The translations under genes were made by a program, and so were the position numbers. Positions 16,161-51,505 of a stretch of 64,000 bases of DNA are shown here, one piece after another (the first letter of the stretch is position 1; every line of letters begins with the position of its first letter). The DNA comes from Escherichia phage GoldenSnicker, in sequence record OR896832.1; one strand, written 5' to 3'. Below the pieces are notes generated by a model, which had not been told where the DNA came from, searched no databases, and was given only the letters and a program-made list of their open reading frames with translations.

Positions 16161-16168
16161 CACTTATT

Positions 16169-18412: not shown

Positions 18413-18479
18413 ATTACCTCACTTCATATTTTAGCAGGAACAAGTTTATCCTCCATATTGGGGGCTTTCGCCCCCTTTG

Positions 18480-19700
18480 TTATACTGCCATTTGAGCGGT
18501 GATCGCTGGATGGCTTTGATAGTTGTGAATTTTAAAATCTTTCGGAGTCTTTGTCAATACCTCATCTAAAGATTTAAATTCCGGCAACTCAATTGTTGGT
18601 TTATCAAACGGAACACGGCTTAACTGTTCCATAACTTGATCAAAATGGTTTTTATAAATGTGAGTATCTCCACCAGAGAAAATCAGTTCTCCTACCTCAA
18701 GATCACACATTTTCGCTATGATGTGAGTTAACAGCGCATAGCTGGCGACGTTAAAGGGCAAGCCTAAAAAGCTGTCTACGCTTCGCTGAAACCACATACA
18801 AGACAGTTTACCTTCATTGACGTAGAATTGCACGAAAGGATGACATACACCTAACACAGCATTATGCGTTTCCTGTACGTTCCATGAATCAATGATAATA
18901 CGACGACTATATGGATCATTCTTGATCATGTCAATAACTTTTTGTAACTGGTCTTCCCAAATCTTCGGGCGATAGACATATTCTTCATCGTCTTTAGTGC
19001 TTGATGTGTCTACGTCCATACTAACAAACATCGTGGTATCCGGTGCTATAATATCCCCACCCAGATAATCACTATCAAGCAGATAACCGAAATAACCATC
19101 ATCTACCCATTCCTGGAATCCCCACAAGCAATATGCATCATTAACAAAATTAGATTGAGTCTTCCAGTGGTCTGCTACCAGAATATAATCAAACTCTTCA
19201 TAACGCATACCACGCCAGATAGCACATAAACGGTCTTCTGTTTCATTGGTTGGCGTAAAGTCTTCTACCCACGGGTGTTTAAATGTATGTGTATATTTGC
19301 TCTTAACGCGCTTAATTTTGATTTCACCGTGTGGATGAATCGGTTTGCGTCGCCACGCCATACCATACATATTGCCGACATTATAACCATTGAATCGCAA
19401 AGGATTCTTTTCTTTCATATCAAGGCAGTTTCCGCGCCAAATATCAAAGGCTTCCTCGTCAAACTTGCCGCGTGTAATTTCCTGTAAGCGACGGCGGTCA
19501 AGTGACCCCTCCATAAACCATAGCAACTCGCCAATTATAGAGGCTGTAGCCATCTTTTTAGTGGTCAGTAATGGAAAACCCTTACTTAAATCAATTCGCA
19601 TCTCTGCGCCGAATTTAGAGAGCGTACCTACCCCAGTTCGGTCTTCACGAGGCCAGCCATTATCAAGAACATCACGCAACAGTTTCAAATATTCTTTCAT
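18480..19700 (-). CDS. td: thymidylate synthase with ~110-aa internal insertion
   Basis: ThyA motifs (DRTGTG-like, DSWNV, CHPFVQFY, FLGLPFNVASYALL, GDTHIY); extra segment between the GxxWR and DPxSRR motifs; no intron. Confidence 0.85.
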   Translation of the reverse strand: MKEYLKLLRDVLDNGWPREDRTGVGTLSKFGAEMRIDLSKGFPLLTTKKMATASIIGELLWFMEGSLDRRRLQEITRGKFDEEAFDIWRGNCLDMKEKNPLRFNGYNVGNMYGMAWRRKPIHPHGEIKIKRVKSKYTHTFKHPWVEDFTPTNETEDRLCAIWRGMRYEEFDYILVADHWKTQSNFVNDAYCLWGFQEWVDDGYFGYLLDSDYLGGDIIAPDTTMFVSMDVDTSSTKDDEEYVYRPKIWEDQLQKVIDMIKNDPYSRRIIIDSWNVQETHNAVLGVCHPFVQFYVNEGKLSCMWFQRSVDSFLGLPFNVASYALLTHIIAKMCDLEVGELIFSGGDTHIYKNHFDQVMEQLSRVPFDKPTIELPEFKSLDEVLTKTPKDFKIHNYQSHPAITAQMAV

Positions 19701-26332: not shown

Positions 26333-26370
26333 TTTATAAATATGAACATACTATAAAAGGAGACCCAATA

Positions 26371-29300
26371 ATGGCAGATTTTTCTCAACATTTCAAGGCC
26401 ACATTTGGCTTTGACGCTGGTAATGAAAAGGTCGTCAATGTAGCATTGGCTGATAAGAATGTCAACACCGATGCGGTCAACGTTGAATTTTTCAATTACC
26501 ATAATGGTATTACTCAGTATGACACAACTCGCGGTTATGATCAATACGGAACTACAATCTATCAAAACCGTCCGTATTATGCAAAAGAAGATATCACAAA
26601 GCCAGCAGGTGATTTTGACCCGACTAAATGGCAAGCACTGCGCACGGACCCACGTTGGGATTATATTGCAGCAACTTCCGGTGATACTCCTTTAAAGTCT
26701 GGTGATTATATCGCAGCAGATGGTCAATTTGCAAACTTGACTTTCTCTATGCCAACTAAACCAGCAGAGGGAGACACTATAACAGTAAAAGATATCGGTG
26801 GCAAGTGTGGTGTTAACGAATTATCGTTCTTGAGTACAGGACATGAGTTTTACCATAATGGTAATGTATATAACAGAAAATGGTATTGCACTACCCCGTA
26901 TGCAATGAACTATTTCATCTTTGTTCGGAATCGTTGGCATGTTTATCAGACAGGAACAGAGCCACGCGGTGTGTACGCACAGCCAGCGATTGATGCTATT
27001 CAAATGCAGAATGGTGATCAGGTATTTCGTCGTAGTTCGTTGGGTAATATTACCTTAGTGCTTCCTAAGTTTGCCAACAATGGCGACATGATCCAGACTA
27101 CAGACCTTGACGGATTAACCGCAACCAACCACGTTACGGTTAAAGTTCATGAGCACGCAGAAGAACAATCAATTGGCACGTCCGGTCTAAAAGAGATTAT
27201 CGGTAAGCGTAGCGGTCATGGTGTATTCATCTTTGACAAGACGGAAAACTTATGGCGTTTGTGGGATGGTGATCAGTCTGTTCGTCTTAAACCGATCATC
27301 AATGACACTCGCTTGCAACCTAATAGCTATGTTGCTGTATTTGGTGGTCGTGATGTTACTCTGACGCTGCCGACCAATGTCGAGCTGGGTGATCGTATTC
27401 AAGTTTCTATGCAGTATATGCACGGAAACCAGACTTGCCGAATCATTACCTCAGAAGAGGATACAAAAATCCTTATGCAGAAAAACATGGTTCAGTTTCC
27501 TAAGCGTAGCGAGTACCCATTCAATGGGACCGATACATGGACTGGAGTGTCTGAATTGTCTTTCAACGCTGCAAATGATTATGTACCTTATCTGGAGTTC
27601 TCTTATTCAGAAGGTGATGATGGTAAGAAATACTGGTTGGTGGCACATGCTCACCCGATTGTAGAACGAGTAGATCCGACTCGTAAAGATCGTGTTGGTG
27701 TAATTGCACTGGCTACCCAGACTGAAACGAATAAAAACCATGAAGAGAATCCTAGCGACGAAGTTGCTGTAACACCAAAAATGCTGGCTAATAAAACAGC
27801 CAACGAAACTCGACGCGGTATTGCTCGCATTGCGACTCAAGCGGAAACGCATCAAGATACTGGTTCCAACTTCCTGGATGATGTTATCGTTACACCCAAA
27901 AAGTTAAATGACTGTGTTGCTACCGAAGCCCGTCGTGGTGTGATGGAAATTGCAACCCAGCACGAAACCAATGAAGGTTTAGACGATACCCGCGCTATTA
28001 CTCCTAAGAAATTAGAAGAACGTCGCGCTTCCGAAGATCTAGCTGGTATTGCTGAAATTGTTCAGGCTGGCGGTAGTGCTGCCGCTCGACGTGGCGAAGC
28101 TGGTACAGGGATCTATAACATCAACGACCATGCTAAAATTGTTACGCCACAAAACATCAACGAAGTCAAGGCGACCGAAACTTCCCGTGGTGTTGGCTAT
28201 CTGGCAACTGACGCGGAAGTGCAAGGGGCTACAGAATCAACCCCGCAAGATGCTTTACTAATCACGACTCGCACGCTAACGAAACGTACTGCTACCGAAT
28301 CTCGCACTGGTATCGCTGAAATTGCAACTCAGGAAGAAACAAACTTAGGTCAAAGTGATAACCATATCATCACGCCTAAAAAGCTGCATACTCGCCGCGC
28401 AACGGAAACTTTACACGGTTTAGCAGAAATTGCAACTCAGTCGGAATTTGACGCAGGTCTTGACGATGCTCGCATTTCTACCCCATTGAAGATTAAAACC
28501 TTCTTTGAGAATGCACAGCGTTTGAAAGTAGATCCGACTCAGGGGCTTAACCTTACTGGTGATTTGTGGCAAGGTATCATGATCAGCGGTCTGGATGCAA
28601 CCGAAGACACAAAAGGTGTCTCTAAAGTTGCTACTACTCAGCTTACGGATGCTGGTCAAGATGATACTACAATCATCACGCCTAAAAAGCTGCAAGGCAA
28701 AAAAGCCACCGAAGGTAAAGAAGGTATTATCCGCGTTGGTACTCAAGCCGAAACCGTGGCTGGTACACTGGCTAATGTAGCAATTTCTCCGAAGAACTTC
28801 AAATATGTTGTTCAGACAGAGGATACATGGAAAGCAACCGAAGCGCGTCGTGGATTCTTGAAAGTTGCTACTCAGGAAAACTGTTTTGTTGGTGATAATC
28901 TGCAAGGTTCTACTCAAGAACTAGGAAACTACCAGCATGACGGAATTGCTGTTACCCCTAAAGGATTAAACTACGCACTTGCTAATTTCTTACCTAAGAT
29001 GGCAACCGCTCAGAATAGTTTGAAATTGGGTAACGTAGAGGCCGCTAAATGGGCGCGTAGAGACATTGACCAGACCATAGAGAGCAATTACACGTTTAAT
29101 AAAAACGTTAACGTGAAGGGCGATTTAGAGTGCTTAAAATCAGGTTCCTTTGAAACTCTGTCTGTGACTAAGAACTCGACCGATGTTCCGAGTAATGGTC
29201 ATCTGGTGTTGGGTGAGCGTGGAGTTGACGGTCACACCGGAATTACTCTGCATGGCACAACCGCATCGGAAGGCATGAAAAACTCGTGGTCTATTATCGT

Positions 29301-30111
29301 TGGTGGTACTGGAACAGCGCAAGTTGTTGATAGTGATGCTATCGCTTTCGGTAAAATCAATGATGGTGGAGTCGTTGAGCATTACGCCTTTGCTATGAAA
29401 CACAATGGCGACGCGACAGCATATAGAGACTTTATTGCAGGTCGTAACCTGTATGCGAAACAAGGCGGTTTATACATTGTTGACCAGTCTAATCCGGCAA
29501 TGACTCGTTCCCCAGATGGTATGCTGAATATCGGTCACGGTGGAAGTGTTAACATCAAGGCAGGTCATCAAACGTTAACTACAGAGATCGCCGGACAGAA
29601 ATATCAGATCGTACACGCAGGAAACGCTGACGAAGTTCTTAACCGTCAGTTTGTTAAGAATGCTGGCGATACAATGGTCGGTAAGCTGACTATGGATAAT
29701 GCGCCTATTGTTTCTGTTAAGCATGAAGCTAGCGCGGCAACCGCTCCGGCAATCGGTAACATCGGTTTCTGGAATATGCGAGTTACTACCCAGAACATCA
29801 AAGAAACTTATCCAGAGAAGAAAAACGGTACTCTGATGCAATGGGGTACTGACGCGGACGGGCTTACCCAGCTTTGGTCCCCTGATGGTACTCATAAACA
29901 TTATATCCGTTCCGGTACTGGTGGTCAATGGACCGCATGGGGTGAAATTTACACCAAACAGAATAAGCCTACCGCTCAGGAAATCGGGGCAGTAGTTGCA
30001 GAAGGTGGTTTAATGAACTCTATGACGGTTCGTGATTGGATCAAAGTTGGTAATGTTAAAATCATCGCCAATAATCTGACTCGTACCGTAGACTTTATCT
30101 GGGAAGACTAA
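26371..30111 (+). CDS. 34: long tail fibre proximal subunit
   Basis: 1246 aa; MAD N-terminus shared with 36/37; about ten internal TE.RRG.A.IATQ.E...ITPKKL repeats; position after rnh. Confidence 0.85.
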   Translation: MADFSQHFKATFGFDAGNEKVVNVALADKNVNTDAVNVEFFNYHNGITQYDTTRGYDQYGTTIYQNRPYYAKEDITKPAGDFDPTKWQALRTDPRWDYIAATSGDTPLKSGDYIAADGQFANLTFSMPTKPAEGDTITVKDIGGKCGVNELSFLSTGHEFYHNGNVYNRKWYCTTPYAMNYFIFVRNRWHVYQTGTEPRGVYAQPAIDAIQMQNGDQVFRRSSLGNITLVLPKFANNGDMIQTTDLDGLTATNHVTVKVHEHAEEQSIGTSGLKEIIGKRSGHGVFIFDKTENLWRLWDGDQSVRLKPIINDTRLQPNSYVAVFGGRDVTLTLPTNVELGDRIQVSMQYMHGNQTCRIITSEEDTKILMQKNMVQFPKRSEYPFNGTDTWTGVSELSFNAANDYVPYLEFSYSEGDDGKKYWLVAHAHPIVERVDPTRKDRVGVIALATQTETNKNHEENPSDEVAVTPKMLANKTANETRRGIARIATQAETHQDTGSNFLDDVIVTPKKLNDCVATEARRGVMEIATQHETNEGLDDTRAITPKKLEERRASEDLAGIAEIVQAGGSAAARRGEAGTGIYNINDHAKIVTPQNINEVKATETSRGVGYLATDAEVQGATESTPQDALLITTRTLTKRTATESRTGIAEIATQEETNLGQSDNHIITPKKLHTRRATETLHGLAEIATQSEFDAGLDDARISTPLKIKTFFENAQRLKVDPTQGLNLTGDLWQGIMISGLDATEDTKGVSKVATTQLTDAGQDDTTIITPKKLQGKKATEGKEGIIRVGTQAETVAGTLANVAISPKNFKYVVQTEDTWKATEARRGFLKVATQENCFVGDNLQGSTQELGNYQHDGIAVTPKGLNYALANFLPKMATAQNSLKLGNVEAAKWARRDIDQTIESNYTFNKNVNVKGDLECLKSGSFETLSVTKNSTDVPSNGHLVLGERGVDGHTGITLHGTTASEGMKNSWSIIVGGTGTAQVVDSDAIAFGKINDGGVVEHYAFAMKHNGDATAYRDFIAGRNLYAKQGGLYIVDQSNPAMTRSPDGMLNIGHGGSVNIKAGHQTLTTEIAGQKYQIVHAGNADEVLNRQFVKNAGDTMVGKLTMDNAPIVSVKHEASAATAPAIGNIGFWNMRVTTQNIKETYPEKKNGTLMQWGTDADGLTQLWSPDGTHKHYIRSGTGGQWTAWGEIYTKQNKPTAQEIGAVVAEGGLMNSMTVRDWIKVGNVKIIANNLTRTVDFIWED
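27690..28975 (+). repeat. tandem ~40-codon coding repeats inside gene 34
   Basis: repeated peptide module ATExRRGxAEIATQxE...DDxxIITPKKL seen about ten times. Confidence 0.6.
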
Positions 30112-30144: not shown

Positions 30145-31284
30145 ATGACACAAGATATAGAATTACGCAACACTGGAATTAGGTTTGCGCATTTCGACGA
30201 AGACTCTGCGACATTTACCAGCATTTCAGAAAATAACTCTGTGATGTATAAGCTGGAAGTGCGCGGATCTAATGCGGATTCTACCAAACCAGCAAGGATT
30301 AGATTTAATGGAGTGGAGATCGTTGGCACTGGCTATGAAAATGGCCTAAATTTTAAAGTTCTTACTCCAACTGGACAACTACACGAAGAAAAGGTATTCT
30401 ATGGTCGCGGTGCTGTTTTGGCAATGCGTGATTATCTTTCTTTGCTGAAAGGTGACTATATCATTGCGATGGCAACGCATGGAGAGTTGTTTGCAGACCC
30501 GATAAGTGATGTTGTATTTTCTAAGATGGGATCTGTATCATTCCCGAATCACATTTTGCTACAGCAAATGCCTCGTGTATCCTATGCAGCAATTTATTCT
30601 ACTAAAATGGGTAAAATTGTGTGCGAAGGGATGCAAGCGTCCAACGGGGAAGGACAAGATTCATCTATACAAATTGAGAAGGTTTATGATACTATAGATG
30701 ATCTTGCTATAACAGGAACACCACAACGATTTTTAGATTATCCGGTTGAGTATGTTAGCGAAGATGCCGAACATTTCGAGCTAATACAATGGCCTCATGA
30801 TGAGACCAGCGCCCCACTTGAGGATTTTAACATAAAGGCAGGTGACAAACTATCAATATCCTTTGAATTGTTCCGTGATAGTGCCGCAGCCGCAGCCAAC
30901 GTAACAGCGCGTTTCTATCACAACTACTTCACCGATGGACAATATCAAACTGGTGTTCGATACAATGCCAGCAAAAAAGACCAATGGGAAAAGTTTGAAG
31001 CCGTCTATACCGTACCGGAAGGAGTTGATAGTGTAGTAACTGGTTGTATCAGATATCCAACCAACTCCAATGAAGGTATTGTTAAAATTAGAAACATACT
31101 AATAACGCCGATCAGTGGAGTCGTCAAAACTACTGGTCCTACTTCATTTGGTGTTAATGGTGTTAGAACAACTCATATTCAGGATAACGGTGATTTTACT
31201 AACCCTGTAATGAGTCTTCTTAAACTACCCAGAGATAATAAACACATCACATCCAACAACTTTAAAGAGTTCGATGTTGATTAA
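30145..31284 (+). CDS. 35: long tail fibre hinge protein
   Basis: ENNSVMYKLEVRGS, VSYAAIYST, RFYHNY, FGVNGVR resemble T4 gp35. Confidence 0.8.
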   Translation: MTQDIELRNTGIRFAHFDEDSATFTSISENNSVMYKLEVRGSNADSTKPARIRFNGVEIVGTGYENGLNFKVLTPTGQLHEEKVFYGRGAVLAMRDYLSLLKGDYIIAMATHGELFADPISDVVFSKMGSVSFPNHILLQQMPRVSYAAIYSTKMGKIVCEGMQASNGEGQDSSIQIEKVYDTIDDLAITGTPQRFLDYPVEYVSEDAEHFELIQWPHDETSAPLEDFNIKAGDKLSISFELFRDSAAAAANVTARFYHNYFTDGQYQTGVRYNASKKDQWEKFEAVYTVPEGVDSVVTGCIRYPTNSNEGIVKIRNILITPISGVVKTTGPTSFGVNGVRTTHIQDNGDFTNPVMSLLKLPRDNKHITSNNFKEFDVD

Positions 31285-31445: not shown

Positions 31446-31453
31446 TATAAATA
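31446..31453 (+). promoter_or_regulatory. T4-type late promoter
   Basis: exact TATAAATA about 33 nt upstream of the gene 36 ATG. Confidence 0.65.
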
Positions 31454-31486: not shown

Positions 31487-32977
31487 ATGGCAGATTTGAA
31501 ATATGGATCTACTGTAGGCGGATCTCCCATTTGGACGCAAGGAAACTTGACGATCCAGCCAGCGGGGGATCAGCTTTTCTACAAAGGTCATAAAATCTAT
31601 ACCGCTTTTGATAGACCTTCGGCTACCGATTTTGATGCTGTTAGCGCATCCGAAGGTGGCACATTTCAAAAGCAAGTTCATTTCGAGGAAGGTTTAAGCG
31701 TAGGTAGCGCATCGGCTGGAGAAACCAAAAAGAATGGTATCTTTAAAGGTCAGAGCGACGCTGCTAATTTTGACGGCGTAAGCTGGGGTTTGCATTCATG
31801 GAAGTCAATAGGCTTTGTTAATGCCCGTGATGGCGTTATTATGGCGTATATTGACACCACAACGGGCGAATTTAAGTCTAAAGGGACTATCGAAGGGACA
31901 ACCATTAAAGACACAGGTCAACGCGTCTATAGCCCTGTTAATAAACCAACGAATAATGATTTAGATTTGGTGTCTCGTCGCGGTGATACTCTCACAGGAA
32001 CATATAATTTAAACACTGTCACTGTTAAACTATCGGTTGATTCGAAATTAATTGCAAGGGAACGTGATTTAATTAATTTTGATGCGACTAAGATCTATTA
32101 TGGTAACGTTCTTGATACGTTGGTCTTCCGAAGTAAAGATGAGCCTACCATTTTTGTTAATGGCAGAGAAGGTCGTTTTTATCACACCAACAATAAACCA
32201 ACTAAAGCCGATGTTGGACTAGGTAATGTCACCAATGATGCGCAGGTTAAACGTGCTGGTGATATTATGGAAGGTAACTTGCAAGCGCCTAGAATGTTGG
32301 CGACAAACGATCCTGCTGGTCCTAATGAATTGGTTCGTTTGAGCTACTTTGAGAGAAAATCAATGGTAGCAAATCCAACCATCATTGGAAACGTTGATTG
32401 GAACACTCTTATTAATCGCGGTATCTATCGTGTGGAAAATGCTGGGTCGGGTACTAATAAACCGTCTGATAGCTATTATAACGGCGTTTTGATGGTATAT
32501 CGCCCAGAAGATGCGGTCGGTACTCGTCGAATTGTTCAGGTGTATTATCCTGAATCTATTGACCATCCGATGTGCTGGCGTTCGTGTTCTAATGAATCAT
32601 GGACTGCATGGAACTATGTAGATCACCGTAAATTGGCTGATATTCGCTATGTTAACGTAACTGGCGATACCATGACAGGACCGTTAACTGTTCCGGCTGC
32701 AAATGGCGTTAGAACAGCTAAAACTAACTATAACGGGGATAACTGTTATGCGGCGTTAAGCGGTGCTGATGGTACTGCTATGATTCACCGCATTAGTGAT
32801 ATTAAAGGGACCGAAAAGCTGGGGATCACCCACGACTCAAAGGTCGTGTTTTTCCGTTCTAGAAACAATACTCAAACCGTGGACCGCTATCAGCTTTATC
32901 ATGAAGGTAATAAACCTACTCCGGCTGATGTTGGCGCGGTTCCACTTAATGCGGTGATTGATTTTGGTACTTTCTAA
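31487..32977 (+). CDS. 36: long tail fibre distal connector
   Basis: N-terminus MADLKYGSTVGGSPIWTQGN matches T4 gp36; 496 aa versus 221 in T4, with repeated NKPTxADVG and GDTMTGxL modules. Confidence 0.8.
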   Translation: MADLKYGSTVGGSPIWTQGNLTIQPAGDQLFYKGHKIYTAFDRPSATDFDAVSASEGGTFQKQVHFEEGLSVGSASAGETKKNGIFKGQSDAANFDGVSWGLHSWKSIGFVNARDGVIMAYIDTTTGEFKSKGTIEGTTIKDTGQRVYSPVNKPTNNDLDLVSRRGDTLTGTYNLNTVTVKLSVDSKLIARERDLINFDATKIYYGNVLDTLVFRSKDEPTIFVNGREGRFYHTNNKPTKADVGLGNVTNDAQVKRAGDIMEGNLQAPRMLATNDPAGPNELVRLSYFERKSMVANPTIIGNVDWNTLINRGIYRVENAGSGTNKPSDSYYNGVLMVYRPEDAVGTRRIVQVYYPESIDHPMCWRSCSNESWTAWNYVDHRKLADIRYVNVTGDTMTGPLTVPAANGVRTAKTNYNGDNCYAALSGADGTAMIHRISDIKGTEKLGITHDSKVVFFRSRNNTQTVDRYQLYHEGNKPTPADVGAVPLNAVIDFGTF

Positions 32978-33047: not shown

Positions 33048-35951
33048 ATGGCAGATTTAAGCAGAATCCAATTTAAACGTACTAGCACTAAAGGCCGTCG
33101 ACCTGATGCTGGTACGATGAATCCGGGGGAATTGGCAATCAACCTTGCGGATCAATATCTTCTTACTAAAAATGATTCCGGTGCTATTATCAATTTAAGT
33201 TGTCCTCCGGTTTATGACAGCGATGTTACAATGGCGGGTAAGGTTAAAGGAAATAATTATATTTTAAGTAAAACCGCTAATTATTTTGAAGACCAAACCG
33301 CGCGAGATCTTAATTATTTTGGTGCGTTTCGACCGAATAATGCTGATGGTTGGTCTAACTTGATTCTGAACATTCCTCATCCCAGCGGTAAAGCACACGG
33401 TCGCGGGTTTGAATTTGAATATGGTTCTAGTTCCTCTCAGGTTAAAACCTATGGCTTTGATAAGGATGGTAACAAGAGATTCAGCTTTCGCATGTATCAC
33501 GAAGGTGATAAACCTACTCCCTCAGAATTGAACGTCTATAGCAAACAAGAAATTGACCGTATGTTTGTTAAGAACGTTAAAATGTCCACTCCTTCCGGTG
33601 AAGCAACCCGTGGTTATTTTAAAATTGCATCCGCAATGATCCCGCAGAGTGGTCGGATGGCGTTTCTGCGAATCTATGGTGGGAACGGATTTAATGTTAA
33701 CTCCTACGATCAGGTGGATTTCCTTGAAATTGTGATTCGTAGTGGTAATAATAACCCTAAAGGCGTTAGTATTGCTGCATATCGTCGAAATTCTTTGAAC
33801 GTCCATGAAGTATTTGCAATTAATACTTCCGGTGATAACTATGACATTTATGTTAACTATGGTCGCTTCACCGATAACGTTATTGTAGAGTTTGGAAAAA
33901 CTGTTGATGTTGCATTGACTGTTCACGATGTTCCTGAATTTTCGGCGACTAAACCAGAAACCGGAACTAAATTTGATGCTCGTGTTATTACCATGTTCAA
34001 CACCGAAAACAAAGCAGGAACGTTGATGTTTGATAATAACTCACAAGCAACCTATGATATTGTGAGCCTTAGCAATGCACCTGATAATAGCCGAAATTAT
34101 CTGCGTAAATTCCGTAGCAAAGCGAATGAAACAATATGGCATGAAACTGTTCAAGGTGATGTGTATCGTTTGGCTACTGGTTCCACCGACCAAAAAGAAG
34201 TATTAAAAATTGTTGGTAGTGATGGTTTATTTGTCAATAGACTTCATCTGCAAGGCAATAACGCGATTCGTATGTGGCGTCCTACTGGTTGTAGTAACTA
34301 TTTTGAATATATGGATCAGCGAGACGGGGCTAATAAACGTCAAGGGTGGTTTGGTTTTGGTTCTACAGAAACCAACGATTTTCAATGGTATAGTGACGAA
34401 GGTAAAAACTTTGTTAAGCTAGAAGCAAGTGGTCAAGTATCTTTAAGCGCAGGTGCAACCAAAATTGTATACACTAATGGTCAATATGTAGCTGCCAATT
34501 CTGATGCATACCGTATGATCTTTGGTAATTATGGTGCATTCTGGCGTAATGACGGCACTAAAGTTTATCTTATGTCTACTGCCGAAAATGATAGATTTGG
34601 TGGCTGGAATGCCTATCGTCCATTCATTTATGATTTAACTTCCGGTAACGTTCAATTAGGCGGTGATGGTAACGAAGATGCATTAACGTTAGAAAGTGCT
34701 TCTCGTGCCGCTCGCTTTAGTAATGACGTTTACATTAAGAAAGGGCTTTTGACTTTCGACGCTGGACGATTAGGATCTCGTGATTTCTTTAAAATCAACC
34801 ATTGGGGTGATAGCAATAACGCCCGTGATAACATTTTGCAGTTTGAAGACAGTCAGGGCGCACATTTTACCACTGAACGTGCTATGGGTACTGGTAACAT
34901 AACAGCACGTTTTAAAGGCTTTGTTCGTGTAGAATCTGGCGAAATTGCATTTGATGCTAATCGGGGGTCGCAGTCTCAATTTACCTTACACACATGGGGT
35001 AACGAGCAACGCAAACAGGTTTTTGAATGTAAGGATGCTACAAGTTATCACTGGTATACTGAACGTACTCAGGGTGGCACTGGACCTATTCTGTTCTGTA
35101 TGGCTGGTAGTCTAAACGTTGGTAGCAATATCACAACAACTGGTGCTGATATTACGTTTAAACGCGCTGGCAATAAGCACATCTGGTTTAGAGATCCAGA
35201 CGGTTTAGAGTTGGGCTTGATGTATTGCGATGACGCTGGTGTTATTCGCTTCCGTGGTCAGAAACAAGCCCAGGCGTGGAAATTTGCAGATAAAATGATC
35301 CAGTTGGAATCTGGTACTGTATCTGGTGGCGGTAATGGCCTGATTCGTGGTGAAGTTGCTGGCGGTAGTTGGGCTAGCTGGCGTGACCGTGCTGCTGGCC
35401 TTATGGTTGGGTGTCCTCAATCAACCGATTCCGCTCATAACATCTGGAAAGCTACTCATTGGGGTAAATATCACATCGCAGCAATGGGTGTACACGTTCC
35501 TAGCGGTACTATCGGTAATGCTATAGCTCGCCTAAACGTTCATGACGCCAACTTTGAATTTAGCGCCTCCGGTGACATGTCGGCAGGGCGTAACGGTTCG
35601 TTTAACGATGTTTATATTCGTTCTGATACTCGCCTTAAAATCAATAAGGAAGAGTATAAGGAGAATGCCACCGATAAAGTTAATCGCTTGACGGTATACA
35701 CCTATGACAAGGTTAAATCTTTAACCGACCGTACTGTCATTGCTCATGAAGTTGGTATTATTGCTCAGGATCTTGAAAAAGAATTGCCGGAAGCCGTAAC
35801 AACTTCTAAGATCGGCGATCCTGATAAGCCAGAAGAGATCTTAACAATTTCTAACTCTGCTGTCAACGCTCTTTTAATTAAGGCGTTTCAGGAAATGAGC
35901 GAAGAACTTAAAGCCGTTAAAGCTGAACTAGCGGAACTTAAAAAGAATTAA
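33048..35951 (+). CDS. 37: long tail fibre distal subunit with C-terminal intramolecular chaperone domain
   Basis: N-terminus MADLSRIQFKRTSTKGRRPDAG...GELAINL matches T4 gp37; C-terminal ~110 aa begin with SDTRLK and end in a coiled-coil-like tail. Confidence 0.85.
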   Translation: MADLSRIQFKRTSTKGRRPDAGTMNPGELAINLADQYLLTKNDSGAIINLSCPPVYDSDVTMAGKVKGNNYILSKTANYFEDQTARDLNYFGAFRPNNADGWSNLILNIPHPSGKAHGRGFEFEYGSSSSQVKTYGFDKDGNKRFSFRMYHEGDKPTPSELNVYSKQEIDRMFVKNVKMSTPSGEATRGYFKIASAMIPQSGRMAFLRIYGGNGFNVNSYDQVDFLEIVIRSGNNNPKGVSIAAYRRNSLNVHEVFAINTSGDNYDIYVNYGRFTDNVIVEFGKTVDVALTVHDVPEFSATKPETGTKFDARVITMFNTENKAGTLMFDNNSQATYDIVSLSNAPDNSRNYLRKFRSKANETIWHETVQGDVYRLATGSTDQKEVLKIVGSDGLFVNRLHLQGNNAIRMWRPTGCSNYFEYMDQRDGANKRQGWFGFGSTETNDFQWYSDEGKNFVKLEASGQVSLSAGATKIVYTNGQYVAANSDAYRMIFGNYGAFWRNDGTKVYLMSTAENDRFGGWNAYRPFIYDLTSGNVQLGGDGNEDALTLESASRAARFSNDVYIKKGLLTFDAGRLGSRDFFKINHWGDSNNARDNILQFEDSQGAHFTTERAMGTGNITARFKGFVRVESGEIAFDANRGSQSQFTLHTWGNEQRKQVFECKDATSYHWYTERTQGGTGPILFCMAGSLNVGSNITTTGADITFKRAGNKHIWFRDPDGLELGLMYCDDAGVIRFRGQKQAQAWKFADKMIQLESGTVSGGGNGLIRGEVAGGSWASWRDRAAGLMVGCPQSTDSAHNIWKATHWGKYHIAAMGVHVPSGTIGNAIARLNVHDANFEFSASGDMSAGRNGSFNDVYIRSDTRLKINKEEYKENATDKVNRLTVYTYDKVKSLTDRTVIAHEVGIIAQDLEKELPEAVTTSKIGDPDKPEEILTISNSAVNALLIKAFQEMSEELKAVKAELAELKKN

Positions 35952-35992
35952 GGAAACTCCCAGGGAAGGGGAACTACTAAGGAGAAACGGCT

Positions 35993-36232
35993 ATGGTCTA
36001 TAATATCGTCATTGGTGCTTTGTCTAATTTCGGAATGAAATTATTGTCAAAGTTAATTAGTGAAAAGATGCTCACTAAAATTTTCTTCTATTGCGCTCGT
36101 CGTCTTGCGGCTTATACCAATACGCCAATTGATGATCGTTTTGTGGAAGAACTTTATAAGGAGTTTAATAAAGATCAGTCAGAAGATAGTAACGAGCAAG
36201 ATAAACCTAGTGATAGTCAACTACCTAAATAA
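35993..36232 (+). CDS. hypothetical small protein
   Basis: 79 aa, amphipathic N-terminus and acidic tail; occupies the slot where T4 has gene 38. Confidence 0.4.
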   Translation: MVYNIVIGALSNFGMKLLSKLISEKMLTKIFFYCARRLAAYTNTPIDDRFVEELYKEFNKDQSEDSNEQDKPSDSQLPK

Positions 36233-36265: not shown

Positions 36266-36922
36266 ATGCAAGTTTCTGAAAAAGGGAAAGACTTTGCTAT
36301 CTCAAATGTCCTGCGCGCTATTTTCACAACTAAAAGCACGGAGTTGCTCGTACTTCGTGTTTTTGCTGCCGTCGTGTTGTCCATATTGGCATTTGTCGTT
36401 TATAGTAAAAACGAGTTATTTGCGCTTTATAAAGAGACTCGTTATGAGACTTATGCTCACATTCTCCAGGTAGAGAAAGACCGCAATTTTGATAATGCAG
36501 CACAGGAGCAGTTACAGATAGTTCATGTGTCGGCTGATGCCGATTTTTCTGCTGTTTTTAGTTTTCGTCCGAAAAACCTAAACTATTTTGTTGATTTGGT
36601 GGCATATGAAGGAAAGCTACCACACACAATCGATGAAAAAAATTTAGGCGGATTCCCTATCAATAAAACGAGTGAAGAATATCGTAGGCATCTTTTAGGT
36701 AAATCATATTTTACCGATAAAGATTTCCAGTATATTCCATCAAGAGAAAAGAAATTAGAGAATATCGATATAGGTTTCATGTATTCTTGTCCTATATTCA
36801 ATCTCGATAATGTCTATTCTGGTAGTATCGCCATTTCATGGAAGAATAAACCGGATATTGACATTGAGAATTTAGATACTCTTTGCAATCAATCTGCCAG
36901 AATCCTCGGAAGGATTAGATAA
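36266..36922 (+). CDS. t: holin
   Basis: 218 aa, same length as T4 T; LQIVHVSADADFSAVFSFRPKNLNYFVDLVAYEGKLP and MYSCPIFNLDNVYSG match. Confidence 0.85.
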   Translation: MQVSEKGKDFAISNVLRAIFTTKSTELLVLRVFAAVVLSILAFVVYSKNELFALYKETRYETYAHILQVEKDRNFDNAAQEQLQIVHVSADADFSAVFSFRPKNLNYFVDLVAYEGKLPHTIDEKNLGGFPINKTSEEYRRHLLGKSYFTDKDFQYIPSREKKLENIDIGFMYSCPIFNLDNVYSGSIAISWKNKPDIDIENLDTLCNQSARILGRIR

Positions 36923-45290: not shown

Positions 45291-47399
45291 TTAAAATTTA
45301 ACATTCTTAACCAGTTTCATAAAGTCTTGTGCGCGTTTGTCATTATGCAGAATACGATACCAGTTATCTACAATATCATACAGTAACGGGCTATTCTCTT
45401 TAAACTTCGCACAAACTGCTTTAATTCGTTCGTTTGCTGCCGTGAATTTTTCATCACAGATCTTTTTAGTTTCTTCGTCCATAATCCAACGAGTACGAAG
45501 GAGTAACTTGGAAACCTCTTTATTATAATGACGACCGTACAGTCTGTCAATAAATTCTGGAACACAGCGTTCTAGTTCATCGTCATGAAACAACATAGTG
45601 ATCACACCAAGATATTCGCCATACCCCAGATGATTGGTCTTAACCTTCTTAGCCAGACCAGCCAGCTTACCGCGAACAAATTCTAGCGCACATTCCAATT
45701 GTTCGTCAACGAGATATTTTTGTGTCTCGTTACGAGTAATAATATACTTTGTTACCCCGAAGTAGTCAAGCGCCGTGTGTAATGTATTTTCACTATGGAT
45801 CGATTTACGACTACGGCTTTCGAATGCATCACCTACGCGGAACATGTGCAAGCCTGATAACTCGCGAATCTCTGCCGCTTTCATGTGATGGCTGGTTTTA
45901 TGCCAACTGTCACCAATCTTTTCCATGATATACACGTTAGGCAGCTTAGGAGTCGCTTCACGTTGTGTACGCTCGGTCTTCTCCGGTTTAACTGCTTTAG
46001 CACGCAGATCATCGGCCTCAGACACTTTAATCACGGTCATTTCAGAATCATCATAATACTGTTTGATGTACTCGAAAGTCTCCATATGTTTTTCGTTGCG
46101 CTGACGGAACACAAGTACCTTTTTATTGATGCCGTATTCCTGGACCATGCCGTTAAGAGTCAGTGCACGCAGTTTCGGTTTATCGGTATCATCAATAAGA
46201 CACGTAATATCTTCTTTATGCATCCATACAAAATGCGTAATGTTGTATTGACTGCTAACGAAAGCAGGGCGCAATTTACTTATTGTGTGACGAGTACGAT
46301 ACAGAGTATACACCTGACCTTCTACGTCATTAGGCGAATCTTTACCCGCATTCACAAACTTATTATAGATTGCTACCGGATCATCCCACTTCCCGATCTT
46401 ACCCATCTTGCTAATAATATTGCGTTGAGTCGATGAATACTCGCTCATAAATTGCGCAAGTTTACGCTCTGTTTTAATGTTGGCGATCTTCTCTTTAACC
46501 TTTTCCAACATCATTTCATTGATTTCTGCAATGCGTTTTTCGATGTTCGCTTTAGTCTCAATTGACAAGTGAACTTCTTCACGCGATGGCATCAGGTCCA
46601 GATCACCCAACTCAAAATTAATGTAAATGGTCTGGTGCTGGCGGTTTACAGCTTCTAACCATGTTCCGCGAACATATTCATACGGGATCGGATACTGGAT
46701 CTTACCCATGATTGCATATACTACATAGGAATCGTTATCACGCCCATTACAAACATAATAATTATCAAAGCTAGGGAAATAATTAATTTCGATTGCATTG
46801 ATATTAGGTTTGTGTTCCCCAAAATGACGCAGTACAAATTGCGCTTCTCGATGCCATGTCTGAATATCTTTTTCTTTCACTGGAATAGTGATTTTCAGAC
46901 CATTGTCTTCATCAGTCGGTTCGTCGAAAATCTGCACCATTTTCGGCATCGAGTTTTGCACAAATGCCGTAAAGCCATAAGCGCGACCATTGTAATAGTT
47001 TACGATTGTAAAGGTGTCGGTATAGCTATAAGCAGACTTCGCACCCAAACCAAAAGACCCGATATAGTCATTAGTCTGGTCTTTTGTTGATTCAAAGTAA
47101 ACCGTAAACAGTTGTTCTAATTCTTTCTTAGACGGAATACCAGTACCATAATCACGCACAGAAAAATACGGTTCGATTGCAGTCGGTAAATGAATATCAA
47201 ACGGACGATCTAAGGTTCCGGCTTCTTTGTGAGTGTCGGTAGCATTGCACGAATACTCACGGACGCAAGCACGCTCACAATATTGATAAGTGTTCTTAGA
47301 AAGCACCATAAAAGCCTTGCTACTTGCTTTCAGTGAAAAATCAACCGCACCGCTCAAGTCACTGCCAAATACTTCTTCATTATCAATATGCATTTTCAT
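45291..47399 (-). CDS. rIIA: rIIA protein
   Basis: 702 aa; N-terminal GHKL-ATPase-like region (DYGTGIP, GSFGLGAKSAY); size and position as T4 rIIA. Confidence 0.7.
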   Translation of the reverse strand: MKMHIDNEEVFGSDLSGAVDFSLKASSKAFMVLSKNTYQYCERACVREYSCNATDTHKEAGTLDRPFDIHLPTAIEPYFSVRDYGTGIPSKKELEQLFTVYFESTKDQTNDYIGSFGLGAKSAYSYTDTFTIVNYYNGRAYGFTAFVQNSMPKMVQIFDEPTDEDNGLKITIPVKEKDIQTWHREAQFVLRHFGEHKPNINAIEINYFPSFDNYYVCNGRDNDSYVVYAIMGKIQYPIPYEYVRGTWLEAVNRQHQTIYINFELGDLDLMPSREEVHLSIETKANIEKRIAEINEMMLEKVKEKIANIKTERKLAQFMSEYSSTQRNIISKMGKIGKWDDPVAIYNKFVNAGKDSPNDVEGQVYTLYRTRHTISKLRPAFVSSQYNITHFVWMHKEDITCLIDDTDKPKLRALTLNGMVQEYGINKKVLVFRQRNEKHMETFEYIKQYYDDSEMTVIKVSEADDLRAKAVKPEKTERTQREATPKLPNVYIMEKIGDSWHKTSHHMKAAEIRELSGLHMFRVGDAFESRSRKSIHSENTLHTALDYFGVTKYIITRNETQKYLVDEQLECALEFVRGKLAGLAKKVKTNHLGYGEYLGVITMLFHDDELERCVPEFIDRLYGRHYNKEVSKLLLRTRWIMDEETKKICDEKFTAANERIKAVCAKFKENSPLLYDIVDNWYRILHNDKRAQDFMKLVKNVKF

Positions 47400-47413
47400 A
47401 ATATAATCCTCAC

Positions 47414-47671
47414 TTAATTAAAATCTTCTTTGTCCATCTCTGCGTAGATTACATCCCACGCCCATAAATCAATAAACGCATTATATGTCACGGTGCAATC
47501 GTTGTCAATCACTTCTTTCGCATATTTCTTGATGTTTTCGTAGGAAACTTGCGGGTCAATTTTGTGTTTACGAAGGTGCGCATATTCATATCTCAGACAT
47601 TTCATAAATAGGTCCATCGATTTCTTTTCTCGATGACACTTGGCGATCATAAAATCAAAACTTCGACTCAT
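47414..47671 (-). CDS. hypothetical protein
   Basis: 85-aa ORF downstream of rIIA. Confidence 0.4.
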   Translation of the reverse strand: MSRSFDFMIAKCHREKKSMDLFMKCLRYEYAHLRKHKIDPQVSYENIKKYAKEVIDNDCTVTYNAFIDLWAWDVIYAEMDKEDFN

Positions 47672-47682
47672 TTTTCTACTCC

Positions 47683-47877
47683 TTATACATTTTCAATTAC
47701 CCATTGCAGATGGGCTTCTGCGTCAACCAGTTCAGCGCGGCTTTTCTCTAAGCACTTGCTGTATTCTTTACGTTCCCACTCGGCAATTTCGTTTTTCAGG
47801 ACTTCTTCATAGTAAGCAATTACGCCTTTCAGGTCTGAAACTTTACGGCTTGCCAATTCGATGTAATGGTTACGCAT
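47683..47877 (-). CDS. hypothetical small protein
   Basis: 64-aa ORF. Confidence 0.35.
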   Translation of the reverse strand: MRNHYIELASRKVSDLKGVIAYYEEVLKNEIAEWERKEYSKCLEKSRAELVDAEAHLQWVIENV

Positions 47878-48073
47878 TTTGATTCTCCTTTGTTACTAGA
47901 TAACGAATTTGGTCTTGCATTGCGATCAGTTCCCAGCGTGCTACTTTCATCATGGAAACTGACTCTTTGAACATAATATTAGCTTTTTCCTTATCCCCTG
48001 TCAAGTAGATTTCTGCAATTTTTTCACAAAATTTTTGAGTTTCTTCATTCTTAAACGGTTTCATATAAGTCAA
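47870..48073 (-). CDS. hypothetical small protein
   Basis: 67-aa ORF with promoter 48095-48123 upstream. Confidence 0.4.
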   Translation of the reverse strand: MTYMKPFKNEETQKFCEKIAEIYLTGDKEKANIMFKESVSMMKVARWELIAMQDQIRYLVTKENQNA

Positions 48074-48094
48074 CCTTTTGTTTTCTATGGGGAT

Positions 48095-48123
48095 ATTATG
48101 ATATATCCCCGATCCAGTGTCAA
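48095..48123 (-). promoter_or_regulatory. sigma70-type early promoter with stem-loop
   Basis: TTGACA (48123..48118), 17 bp, CATAAT (48100..48095); inverted repeat ggggatat/atatcccc spans the -10. Confidence 0.55.
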
Positions 48124-48131
48124 CGGATTTT

Positions 48132-48431
48132 TTAATCTTTTTTCAGTGCATCCATTACTCGCTCTGCGATCAGTTCTCTTAAGCACTGATAACCATGATA
48201 TTTGATGGCAATGTCACGCAGATCATTAACCAGTTCCCGTACTTCATGGTCTTTCAGATCGTCTCTGTATTTCGATTTAATCGTATCTTTAGGTGGATTG
48301 CGGATAACCTGAAAACCTTGTTCTGCAATCACTGCGGCTTCGCGCTGGCGTTCATGTTGTACTGTATTTTTGATCAGGTCTGCTTCCATGAACTTTGCCA
48401 TACTCATCATCATGTTATTCTTTTTGCTCAT
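48132..48431 (-). CDS. hypothetical protein (internal start)
   Basis: about 99 aa from MSKKNN; promoter 48466-48494 upstream. Confidence 0.4.
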   Translation of the reverse strand: MSKKNNMMMSMAKFMEADLIKNTVQHERQREAAVIAEQGFQVIRNPPKDTIKSKYRDDLKDHEVRELVNDLRDIAIKYHGYQCLRELIAERVMDALKKD

Positions 48432-48465
48432 TATTAAATCCTCATAAAAGAAAAGGGAGACTCCC

Positions 48466-48494
48466 ATTATAGAGAATCTCCCTTGTATGTCAAG
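48466..48494 (-). promoter_or_regulatory. sigma70-type early promoter
   Basis: TTGACA (48494..48489), 17 bp, TATAAT (48471..48466). Confidence 0.5.
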
Positions 48495-48496
48495 TG

Positions 48497-50320
48497 TTAT
48501 GATTGCATCCAAATTTTGCGCTGATCTGCATCTTCACTATAGAGCAAATCGAATAGCTCTTTATAGTTTTCCGGTAACGTGATGATCTCCATGACAGGAT
48601 CGTTGATCACGCGATGATAGTCTGATTCTGTGAGCGATGCTAAACCTTTTATATATCGAATGTTGTAACCTTTGATATTATCTCGGTCGTTCTCGAAATC
48701 TTCTAGGTCATAATACCATCGAACATCATCACCTTTCTTTGGTTCAGCAATGATAATAGGTGTTTTGATAAACCGGATTCGTCCATCTTCGAACAATTCA
48801 GGCCAACGTGCAAAGAAAGAGATCAGACTAGGCTTAATAGACCCGATCCCGTCGGTATCAGCGTCTGTCATAATCGCAATATTTTTGTATTGCATAACTT
48901 CCAATGCATCAACACCAAATTGCAAACCAGTGATCGCCATGATGTTAAAAATTTCGGCGTTCTTAACGATCTTTGCCTCTGGTTGCTCCCACGTTGTAAG
49001 AGTTTTACCTCGCAACGGGAAACCTCCATGTAAATCTTGATCACGTACAGAGATCAGATAGTTGATCGCGGAATCACCTTCCGTCAAAAACAGGGTAGTT
49101 TCTGCGTCAGTTCCAATAAGGTTAGCTTTAACGTGTTTTGCTACCTTAGCCCGTTTTGCTGCCTTTGCTGCCTTAGTCGCTGCCGCTTTATCTGCTGCCT
49201 CTTTGCGTGCCAGGACTACAGCAATAATAGGCATGATAATGTTTTCTTTCTTCGCAATGACTTTAGCCAGTTTTTTAAAGTCCAGATCAATGTGTCGCTT
49301 GATATCACCAGTTGGATTAGTCAAGCGTTCTTTTGTCTGTGAATCAAAGCGCAAGTTAGGCAATTCACGAACAATAAGAATACAGGTCAATCCAGACTTA
49401 ACCGCAGCTTTAGTAACATCAACCTTATATTCTTTCTTGATTCGTTTTACAATCTCTTCACAAAGATCATCTGTCACGTAGTCTACGTGTGTTCCCCCGT
49501 TTTTGGTAAACAGACCATTAGCAAAGGATACTGATTTAAAACCTTCTCCCTCGACCGCCGGAACTAGAGCAAGTGAAAAGTTTTTATCTTCAATGACAAA
49601 CGGATCATCATTGTATAGTTTAGCATAATCCTTGAACTTACTAACAATACGTTTACCATTAAACTTAAACGTGATCTTAGGAAAGATTACGCTCAATGAT
49701 TGCAGACGATCATGAACAATATCTAAAACAGAGTTGTCCATCATATAACCTTCGAAGTGGTCGAAGTCTGGGCAAAATGTAACCTTTGTTCCCTTCAATT
49801 TTGATGGTTTTGACGACCATGTGATATTTTCAGCGCCGTTTGTGCACTGTACGGTCATTTCTGTTTCGCCGTCACATGTTACACCAGTAAACCAATCGCT
49901 AAAGAAATTTGACAACGACGACCCCACACCGTTCATCCCTTGCGTTAATCGATTGGTATCATCAAAGTTAGACCCTGCTTTTGTTCGTGTCCATGCGGCT
50001 ACAGGTTGCGGAATCTGCGTACCCTCTGGGGTAGTAACCATATGTTGAGGAATACCGCGACCATTGTCTGTTACCGTAACAATATTGTTTTGGATATCGA
50101 CGCTAATCACATTGGCAAATTCAAAGTTAGTGCGGATCGCCTCGTCTACAGAGTTGTCGATGATCTCATCAATGATTTTAACCAGTCCAGGAACATATGA
50201 AATTTTTGTCCACTTACCGAACAGGAAACGTTGATGTTCTTCGTAAGTTGTTGATCCTATATACATTCCTGCACGCTTAAGGACATGTTCACGATCAGAT
50301 AAAATGCGAAACTCACTCAT
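48497..50320 (-). CDS. 39: DNA topoisomerase II large subunit (GyrB-like), fused 39+60 type
   Basis: 607 aa single ORF; N-terminal ATPase region LKRAGMYIGS; length equals gp39 plus gp60 of T4. Confidence 0.85.
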   Translation of the reverse strand: MSEFRILSDREHVLKRAGMYIGSTTYEEHQRFLFGKWTKISYVPGLVKIIDEIIDNSVDEAIRTNFEFANVISVDIQNNIVTVTDNGRGIPQHMVTTPEGTQIPQPVAAWTRTKAGSNFDDTNRLTQGMNGVGSSLSNFFSDWFTGVTCDGETEMTVQCTNGAENITWSSKPSKLKGTKVTFCPDFDHFEGYMMDNSVLDIVHDRLQSLSVIFPKITFKFNGKRIVSKFKDYAKLYNDDPFVIEDKNFSLALVPAVEGEGFKSVSFANGLFTKNGGTHVDYVTDDLCEEIVKRIKKEYKVDVTKAAVKSGLTCILIVRELPNLRFDSQTKERLTNPTGDIKRHIDLDFKKLAKVIAKKENIIMPIIAVVLARKEAADKAAATKAAKAAKRAKVAKHVKANLIGTDAETTLFLTEGDSAINYLISVRDQDLHGGFPLRGKTLTTWEQPEAKIVKNAEIFNIMAITGLQFGVDALEVMQYKNIAIMTDADTDGIGSIKPSLISFFARWPELFEDGRIRFIKTPIIIAEPKKGDDVRWYYDLEDFENDRDNIKGYNIRYIKGLASLTESDYHRVINDPVMEIITLPENYKELFDLLYSEDADQRKIWMQS

Positions 50321-50419
50321 TATTAAACCTCTTCATAACATAACCATAACTTACTGCAACCGCCACAAAGACGGCTGCAACAATCATATTAAAAATTGAG
50401 TGATTGTCAAGTATATGAC

Positions 50420-50593
50420 TCATGACACGCGCACATTTTTATCGTAATACCCGCCATTAATCCCGCGCGGGGCAGTCAATCCCTGTTTGCATTCTTTACC
50501 GCATTCAGGGCATTCTGCCTTTTCACGCTCGGAAATTTTGCGGATTTTCTGAAATTGACCGTGTTCTTCACAAGAATAATCGTATAATGGCAT
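50420..50593 (-). CDS. FmdB-like zinc-ribbon protein
   Basis: MPLYDYSCEEHG...CPECG; about 57 aa from the internal ATG. Confidence 0.5.
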   Translation of the reverse strand: MPLYDYSCEEHGQFQKIRKISEREKAECPECGKECKQGLTAPRGINGGYYDKNVRVS

Positions 50594-50594
50594 A

Positions 50595-51263: not shown

Positions 51264-51264
51264 T

Positions 51265-51504: not shown

Positions 51505-51505
51505 A

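Follow-up and report, generated by a model that had tools for sequence, protein, structure and literature searches.

A peptidase S74-type intramolecular chaperone domain at the C-terminus of gp37 in Escherichia phage GoldenSnicker, with gene 38 most likely displaced

In phage RB49, gp37 bears a chaperone domain that cleaves itself off, after which gp38 caps the fibre (Efimov 2022; PMC9569957). Gene 38 has been described as 'displaced elsewhere in the genome', with a small open reading frame (ORF) in its former place (Trojet 2011, citing Desplats 2002; PMC3157838). Both the self-cleaving gp37 chaperone and the displaced gene 38 are already published for the RB49 group, and the receptor choice of Krischvirus phages is set by their gp38 adhesins (PMC12032242). 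The S16 gp37–gp38 tip (PDB entry 6F45) and the T2 and T6 fibres have in common with GoldenSnicker an intramolecular chaperone (IMC) of ~110 residues with the motif S-D-x-R-h-K (h = Leu/Ile), which reads SDRRIK in S16 and SDTRLK in GoldenSnicker. The S16 IMC is autocleaved, which uncovers the gp38 docking surface (PMC7917993). The adhesins of the S16/T2 type and of Krischvirus are alike Gly-rich GP38-family proteins.

Two further systems are more distant. T4 gp37 resembles GoldenSnicker gp37 in its homologous shaft (Gp34_trimer-like domain) and in its tail-fibre operon position upstream of the holin gene t, but it has no S74 domain and ends in Collar and Phage_fiber repeats, with a receptor-binding needle of its own; T4 gp38 (phrog_105), a Tfa-like assembly factor, bears no relation to the gp38 adhesin. 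The Peptidase_S74 domains of K1F endoNF (3GW6), GA-1 gp12 (3GUD), T5 pb1 and the MyRF ICA (7DC3) have a Ser and a Lys five residues on, as in gp37. The mature C-terminus that release exposes serves directly as the functional end in T5 and the endosialidases, whereas a separate adhesin is expected to cap GoldenSnicker gp37.

Gene 37 and its surroundings

The window analysed here is a stretch of 64,000 nucleotides from GoldenSnicker (sequence record OR896832.1). Sequence comparison identifies the source phage as a Krischvirus, an RB49-like coliphage, and the flanking DNA is 97.6% identical to that of RB49 (window 45291–64000 against RB49 1–18711). The main features of the locus are as follows.

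33048–35951, + strand: gene 37, long tail fibre distal subunit precursor (967 aa + stop; phrog_1699)
34299–34631, + strand: Gp34_trimer-like shaft domain, aa 418–528 (Pfam PF21446, E=1.4e-29)
36266–36922, + strand: holin gene t (Pfam Phage_holin_T, E=4.5e-61; phrog_860 holin)

The gp37 ORF matches phrog_1699, 'long tail fiber protein distal subunit' (E=3e-182), and lies between homologues of gp34, gp35 and gp36 upstream and t downstream. RB49, Phi1 and JSE (Krischvirus) have the same order (g34-g35-g36-g37, small ORF, t) and the same C-terminal chaperone, and differ from GoldenSnicker in the mosaic of the gp37 shaft, at the allele level only. Krischvirus copies of gene 37 are 84–94% identical to that of the window at the nucleotide level; the closest match in the phage collection is 86% identical when the whole gene is covered, or 94% identical over 83% of it. 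The shaft allele is a new mosaic of PHB13-, Delraymugoa- and pEJ01-like blocks, which occur separately in those phages. Its variable parts (aa 81–160, 321–480 and 601–720) show 40–75% identity in at least some Krischvirus relatives, in a map made without TB34 and Brandy, in whose records gene 37 is frameshifted or split. The shaft matches the T4 gp34 structures 4UXE and 5NXH (phmmer). Full-length gp37 compared with the PDB returned gp34-like shaft domains only, and the link to chaperones emerged only when the C-terminal fragment or a profile was used.

The C-terminal chaperone and the predicted cleavage site

The C-terminal part of gp37 comprises the following elements.

35298–35621, + strand: distal end of mature gp37, aa 751–858, ending DVYIR858; predicted gp38 docking surface
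35619–35624, + strand: predicted autoproteolysis site Arg858^Ser859, aligned to the S16 and T5 pb1 sites
35622–35948, + strand: Peptidase_S74 IMC, aa 859–967, predicted catalytic Ser859 and Lys864 (PF13884)
35853–35945, + strand: C-terminal long helix of the chaperone, aa 936–966 (DSSP helix 186–216 of a 217-aa model)

The only IMC in the 64-kb window makes up the last 109 residues of gp37 and so stands at the extreme C-terminus of this fibre subunit. A sequence-only reading of this DNA had begun the last ~110 residues at SDTRLK with codons from 35622, and codon 859 indeed lies at 35622 (TCT GAT ACT CGC CTT AAA). The PF13884 match spans aa 859–918, profile positions 1–58 of 58 (E=9.8e-11; 42.2 bits, with a curated Peptidase_S74 cutoff of 22 bits). 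An alignment of 27 homologues shows no variation at S859, D860, R862, L863 and K864. The Ser at the domain start and the Lys five residues on align with SDRRIK of S16 gp37, and their counterparts in T5 are S1264 and K1269 (PMC4690869).

A profile search of the PDB with the gp37 C-terminus retrieved 6F45_A (S16 gp37, E=7e-10) and also the MyRF ICA (7DC3); no PDB sequence matches to endoNF or T5 pb1 were obtained, even with a profile. The AlphaFold (AF2) model, a monomer prediction, has a pLDDT near 90 over aa 870–967, and its ten best Foldseek matches are all IMC/ICA structures: 7DC3 (E=4e-5, probability 1.0), 3GUD (probability 1.0) and 3GW6. Kinship to 3GW6 and 3GUD comes from the fold search. 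The Pfam match, the invariant Ser and Lys, the profile matches to S16 gp37 and the MyRF ICA and the fold search identify the gp37 C-terminus, from sequence and predicted structure, as a genuine member of the S74 intramolecular-chaperone family, the kinship first proposed for it. The coiled-coil-like tail that went with this proposal is also borne out: aa 936–966 are predicted as one long helix (31 residues, pLDDT 88–94) that has its aligned counterpart in the last helix of S16 gp37 and is likely to be a trimeric coiled coil. Identity of the chaperone to the window is 95–100% over aa 881–967 in five Krischvirus relatives and 98–100% over aa 881–960 in RB49.

The position of the cut needs correction. 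It had been placed after the Ser, yet the bond cut in S16 (DLNVS^SDRRIKK; PMC7917993) and in T5 pb1 (Thr1263^Ser1264; PMC4690869) precedes the catalytic Ser. Aligned in this way, gp37 would be cut between Arg858 and Ser859 with release of the chaperone, and the residue before the cut would be Arg (DVYIR^S), in contrast to the Ser of S16 (DLNVS^S). DVYIR^SD.RLKI is a described cleavage and docking strand motif, and DVYIR^SDTRLKI of gp37 is the same as the fPS/T2-type DVYIR^SDGRLKI at 11 of 12 positions (PMC7917993). Autoproteolytic release has been tested in the homologues from S16, T5, K1F and T2/K3; the literature searched yielded no mass spectrometry or gel evidence for gp37 processing in any Krischvirus.

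As in the T2/S16 type, a conserved strand, predicted to serve docking, precedes the IMC of gp37. The tip (aa 751–858) is 56% identical to gp37 of RB5 (T2/T6-type), 67–100% identical within Krischvirus and 30–43% identical to the lateral tail fibres of T5-like and Dhillonvirus siphoviruses. In the tip alignment (A1), V105 and R108 are invariant and N103, D104, Y106 and I107 nearly so. By analogy with the S16 structure 6F45, the exposed end (…DVYIR858) is probably the gp38 docking surface; sequence similarity between gp37 and S16 gp37 begins only ~20 residues before the cut, so that the docking geometry further upstream is less certain.

Gene 38 and the ORF that follows gene 37

In S16, T2 and T6, gene 38 comes directly after gene 37, whereas the Krischvirus gene sits about 55 kb off, on the other strand. 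In the window, the slot after gene 37 is filled by an unrelated ORF.

35993–36232, + strand: 79-aa ORF in the usual gene 38 slot (phrog_402, E=5e-20; function unknown)

Queries with gp38 of RB49, Delraymugoa or T4 gave nothing better than E=1.2 in tblastn of the 64-kb window, the T4 query producing a single 19-aa match at chance level (E=1.2). Gly-rich ORFs, used as a crude gp38 screen, were not found in the window either. A GP38-family adhesin is absent from these 64 kb, and the distant locus of the relatives falls past the window edge. The RB49 gene 38 occupies 45367–46143 on the minus strand and encodes a T2-type adhesin of about 260 aa (Pfam GP38 and Gp38_N, E=7e-72). Like RB49, at least 12 further Krischvirus genomes have a T2-type gene 38 about 55 kb downstream of gene 37 and on the strand opposite to it; tblastn located it in pEJ01, TB34, SAP, PHB13, Whisky, Phi1, ECD7, AV108, 011D4 and Makalu, and also in Delraymugoa. 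The window extends for 28 kb beyond gene 37 and stops about 27 kb short of the RB49 locus, so that a gene 38 in that place would go unseen. The statement that gene 38 is missing therefore holds only for the canonical slot and for the 64-kb window, but not as a loss from this phage group, since all relatives checked carry the gene. From these relatives and from synteny, gene 38 of GoldenSnicker has most likely been relocated about 55 kb from gene 37, not lost. An unrelated ORF in the slot is the known Krischvirus arrangement (PMC3157838) and affects gene order but not mechanism.

The proposal that fibre assembly dispenses with the T4 gp38/gp57A route is supported in part. No T4-type gp38 assembly factor stands beside gene 37 in the window, and none is annotated in the RB49 stretches inspected. 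An RB49 gp57A query gave nothing better than E=1.2 in tblastn of the window, and the RB49 gene (61192–61452) lies outside the region that the window covers. RB49 keeps gp57A, so abandonment of the gp57A route is not supported.

A ribosome-binding site, AAGGAG, stands 8 nt before the 79-aa ORF. The ORF is 100% identical in PHB13, pEJ01 and Delraymugoa, and its protein is 97.5% identical to that of RB49; its homologues have precomputed assignments to Pfam PF26925. The phrog_402/PF26925 family is common to Krischvirus, Ounavirinae and some Vibrio phages. The ORF gives no alignment with the RB49 T2-type gp38 at E≤100. A 19-aa match (EELYKEF) with E=0.001 in two-sequence BLASTP raised the possibility of a T4-type gene 38 remnant; this was rejected because phrog_402 and phrog_105 show no cross-hit and the same match has E=1.2 against the window. 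The judgement that the ORF is too small and too dissimilar to be T4 gp38 is upheld by this chance-level 19-residue match and by the different PHROG families, and on sequence grounds the ORF is neither type of gp38.

The ORF might instead encode a novel chaperone or adaptor, dedicated to the fibre, that takes over the function of gp38 at the gene 37 locus. It occupies the gene 38 slot with its own ribosome-binding site, it is fully conserved in the three relatives named above, and a homologue directly follows the tail-fibre gene of the Suspvirus phage mistaenkt. The T4 late promoter consensus TATAAATA is present before g34 and g36 only and was not found before the 79-aa ORF or t, and sigma-70 and terminator scans in the region did no better than shuffles. 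Against such a role, the mistaenkt fibre lacks an S74 domain and ends in the T4-type gp37_C instead, so the ORF is not tied to fibres of the chaperone type, and no similarity to the gp38, Tfa or gp57A families was found. In both Krischvirus and Suspvirus, the ORF directly precedes the holin gene, and in two Vibrio phages homologues come after a GH108 or M15 endolysin; this neighbourhood points to a role in the lysis cassette. A fibre chaperone or adaptor encoded here is thus improbable.

The fibre tip and receptor binding

Taken together, sequence and predicted structure make it very probable that the distal fibre of GoldenSnicker has the standard T2/S16/RB49-type end, with gene 38 displaced. 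Gp37 would be synthesized as a 967-aa precursor, in which the trimeric chaperone (S859–N967) would nucleate folding of the triple beta-helical tip before it and set its register. When the trimer has reached its correct fold, Ser859, with Lys864 as its activator, would cut the Arg858–Ser859 bond and the chaperone would dissociate. The new C-terminal face, formed by three DVYIR strands, would dock one T2-type gp38 monomer, whose glycine-rich C-terminal domain would bind the receptor, OmpA or O-antigen in RB49-type phages. In Krischvirus, gene 38 would have moved about 55 kb from gene 37, leaving the unrelated 79-aa ORF in the old slot.

The sequence-only reading had put the mature receptor-binding tip just upstream of the cleavage site. 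This runs counter to RB49, in which the host-range mutations (E230K/Y231S) lie in gp38 (PMC9569957); in fibres of the RB49 type, gp38 forms the receptor-binding tip, and the part of gp37 before the cut does not. In the rival model, GoldenSnicker would truly lack any gp38, and the gp37 segment before the cut, once the chaperone is released, would itself bind the receptor, as in the T5 L-shaped fibre. Neither gp38 type occurs anywhere in the 64-kb window, and the resemblance of the tip to T5-like and Dhillonvirus lateral tail fibres fits such a role: fibres of these phages with the tip-plus-chaperone module appear to be without gp38, so that the tip can work uncapped there. Among Salmonella-phage records, 121 match the tip and 27 match gp38, which implies many carriers of the tip module without gp38. 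However, the window stops about 27 kb before the RB49 gene 38 position, and the distant gene is present in all relatives examined. Moreover, five Krischvirus relatives show 70–95% identity to the window over the segment before the cut (aa 801–858), which closes with the conserved DVYIR strand, whereas the shaft varies most, a pattern unlike that of a specificity determinant. We therefore regard a GoldenSnicker fibre that lacks gp38 and binds through gp37 as very improbable.

The processed gp37 end could also bind a receptor besides docking gp38, a possibility raised by the module common to the uncapped T5-like and Dhillonvirus lateral fibres, or the shaft blocks could do so; the 79-aa ORF could, in addition or instead, be a lysis-cassette component (holin partner or antiholin). 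Jointly, we give these additions a small chance. If true, binding by the gp37 end or the shaft might help to explain how RB49-like phages recognize several unrelated O-antigens, which for a small adhesin is 'counter-intuitive' (Efimov 2022; PMC9569957).

With the standard T2/S16/RB49-type end as the preferred reading, the current understanding of T-even fibre assembly is unchanged. The locus is mainly a caution: where a window covers part of a genome, a gene that is not in its usual place may still be present elsewhere. In annotation, residues 859–967 of gp37 are to be marked as a pro-domain predicted to be released, and engineering and host-range prediction in Krischvirus should look to the distant gp38 gene, not the gp37 end, for specificity.

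The fibre operon and the chaperone domain of gp37

The window possesses a long-tail-fibre operon of the T4-like kind on the plus strand.

Genes of the tail-fibre operon
26371–30111, plus strand, gp34 (1246 residues)
30145–31284, plus strand, gp35 (379 residues)
31487–32977, plus strand, gp36 (496 residues)
33048–35951, plus strand, gp37 (967 residues)
35993–36232, plus strand, small ORF (79 residues)
36266–36922, plus strand, holin t (218 residues)

The region 33048–36300 matches 84 phage records at 84–94% identity (megablast), nearly all from Escherichia or Shigella Krischvirus (RB49, Phi1, PHB13, pEJ01, TB34 and others), and RB49 1–18711 is collinear with window positions 45291–64000 at 97.6% identity. 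These matches place the source among the RB49-like ('pseudo-T-even') coliphages. Three matches to the T4 late-promoter consensus TATAAATA occur in the window, which is not above chance expectation; on the plus strand they lie just upstream of g34 (26335–26342) and g36 (31446–31453) only. The plus-strand scan found no consensus before g37, the 79-residue ORF or t, so transcription of all three may start at the g36 promoter.

The C terminus of gp37 is an S74-type intramolecular chaperone (IMC) domain, as the sequence-only reading had proposed, and it starts exactly where that reading placed it, with SDTRLK at codon 859 (position 35622). Residues 859–918 cover the whole Pfam Peptidase_S74 profile (E = 9.8e-11, 42 bits; cutoff of 22 bits). 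A database search with residues 751–967 returned 28 homologues, 27 of them with a precomputed PF13884 assignment; in an alignment of the window gp37 with 26 of these homologues, V855, R858, S859, D860, R862, L863 and K864 are invariant across all 27 sequences. The alignment profile matches three solved structures: the distal subunit of the S16 long tail fibre (6F45_A, E = 7e-10, with SDRRIK opposite SDTRLK), another tail fibre (8JOV), and the ICA domain of MyRF (7DC3), which is a known eukaryotic S74 relative. The domain thus aligns to known intramolecular chaperones, a check that the same reading had suggested. The AlphaFold2 model of residues 751–967 has a pLDDT near 90 over the chaperone part (residues 870–967) and is closed by a 31-residue helix. 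The ten top Foldseek matches of this model in the PDB are all IMC or ICA domains (7DC3, 3GUD, 3GW6), and the next match has a probability of 0.11. The chaperone domain is genuine, its match lying far beyond what chance would give. When all six frames were scanned with a profile, no second IMC came up in the window, and Pfam detected no S74 domain in gp34 or gp36.

T5 pb1 is cut between Thr1263 and Ser1264, and the serine, activated by Lys1269, departs with the chaperone (PMC4690869). The S16 fibre is cut at DLNVS^SDRRIKK, and in T2-like Yersinia phages the cut is predicted between Arg and Ser of the homologous DVYIR^SDGRLKI (PMC7917993). The window gp37 reads DVYIR^SDTRLKI at this position, which puts the expected cut at Arg858^Ser859 and predicts, by homology, an 858-residue mature protein and a 109-residue released domain. 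Cleavage after the serine, as initially suggested, has the polarity slightly wrong, since T5 and S16 cut before it.

Gene 38 and the 79-residue ORF

The 79-residue ORF had been judged not to encode gp38, and this stands: nothing in it aligns to RB49 gp38, its match to T4 gp38 is a 19-residue segment at chance level, and the PHROG families differ. The companion claim, that gene 38 is missing, is wrong for this phage group. RB49 is annotated with g38 at 45367–46143 on the minus strand, encoding a Gly-rich protein of 258 residues (Pfam GP38, E = 7e-72; Gp38_N, E = 6e-18), approximately 55 kb downstream of g37 around the permuted map and approximately 27 kb past the right end of the window. Searches with RB49 gp38 (tblastn) place g38 on the strand opposite to g37, at a distance of approximately 55 kb, in each closest g37 relative matched (pEJ01, TB34, SAP, PHB13, Whisky, Phi1, ECD7, AV108, 011D4 and Makalu); Delraymugoa carries it at 124391–125176, also far from g37. 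This displacement has been stated outright in the literature (PMC3157838). A 303-residue database protein (P0019) combines Pfam GP38, Gp38_N and Peptidase_S74, with gp38-like sequence aligned upstream of an IMC; the record is explained either by gene calling that ran across adjacent genes or by a true fusion or rearrangement.

The 79-residue ORF belongs to phrog_402, whose homologues carry PF26925 (2992–3189, 3004–3213 and 2504–2713 in the phage loci L012, L013 and L015, respectively).

Genomic contexts of phrog_402
Krischvirus: downstream of g37, ahead of holin t
Suspvirus mistaenkt (Ounavirinae): flanked by a tail fibre whose end is of the T4 gp37_C type and by an annotated holin, whose start the ORF overlaps
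Vibrio phage 1.036.O: immediately 3' of a GH108 endolysin
Vibrio phage 1.177.O: preceded by an M15 endolysin and an HNH insertion
SU10-like phage PKM.Lu.22.1: flanked by capsid and adaptor genes

With the exception of the SU10-like phage, the recurrent neighbour in these unrelated phages is a lysis gene, not an IMC-type fibre. A putative role in the lysis cassette is more likely than one as a fibre chaperone, and the family may represent an uncharacterised lysis accessory protein.

Variation of gp37 and fibre assembly

Identity to the window gp37 in five relatives is 70–95% over residues 801–858 and 95–100% over residues 881–967; in a wider Krischvirus set, identity of the tip (residues 751–858) falls to 67%. 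Strongly variable mosaic blocks comprise shaft residues 81–160, 321–480 and 601–720. PHB13 is 98–100% identical over residues 1–320, Delraymugoa 95–100% over 321–520 and pEJ01 98–100% over 601–720, with the remaining relatives at 40–60% in blocks 361–480 and 601–720. Such a patchwork of sequence indicates recent recombination inside the fibre shaft. In the public records, the g37 frame of TB34 stops after 39 codons, its CDS being annotated from a later start, and g37 of Brandy is split into two annotated CDSs; the interruptions are either frameshift errors of sequencing or genuine breaks in the gene.

The tip (35298–35621) is 30–43% identical to lateral tail fibres of T5-like (approximately 110 kb, Salmonella) and Dhillonvirus (approximately 50 kb) siphoviruses, and the tip-plus-chaperone module is therefore exchanged between myovirus and siphovirus fibres. 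Many of the siphovirus carriers show no match to RB49 gp38 (tblastn), so the module can function uncapped elsewhere. This lends something to the proposal that the fibre lacks gp38 and ends in gp37 as its receptor-binding tip, which the distant g38 of RB49 and its relatives nevertheless renders very improbable. For the phage group, gp37 as receptor binder is wrong: RB49 host-range mutants are located in gp38 (E230K/Y231S; PMC9569957), and receptor choice in Krischvirus is set by gp38 variants (PMC12032242).

The best-supported model is an S16/T2-type pathway. The IMC would template trimer folding of the distal β-helix of gp37 and then cut itself off; the exposed DVYIR face would dock one gp38 monomer through the tryptophans conserved at the N terminus of gp38 (PMC6851490, PMC7917993), and the docked gp38 would bind the receptor. 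The suggestion that the T4 gp38/gp57A route is unused is reasonable for gp38, the T4 type being absent from the window and from the annotation of the RB49 stretches inspected. Abandonment of gp57A, by contrast, is unsupported: RB49 retains this gene at 61192–61452, beyond the window, and neither gp34 nor gp36 has an S74 domain.

For RB49, the self-cleaving type of the domain, the displaced gene 38 and the role of gp38 have all been described in the literature already. Nothing in the window sequence is new except its mosaic allele of g37, and the variability map of gp37 fits the S16/T2-type model.
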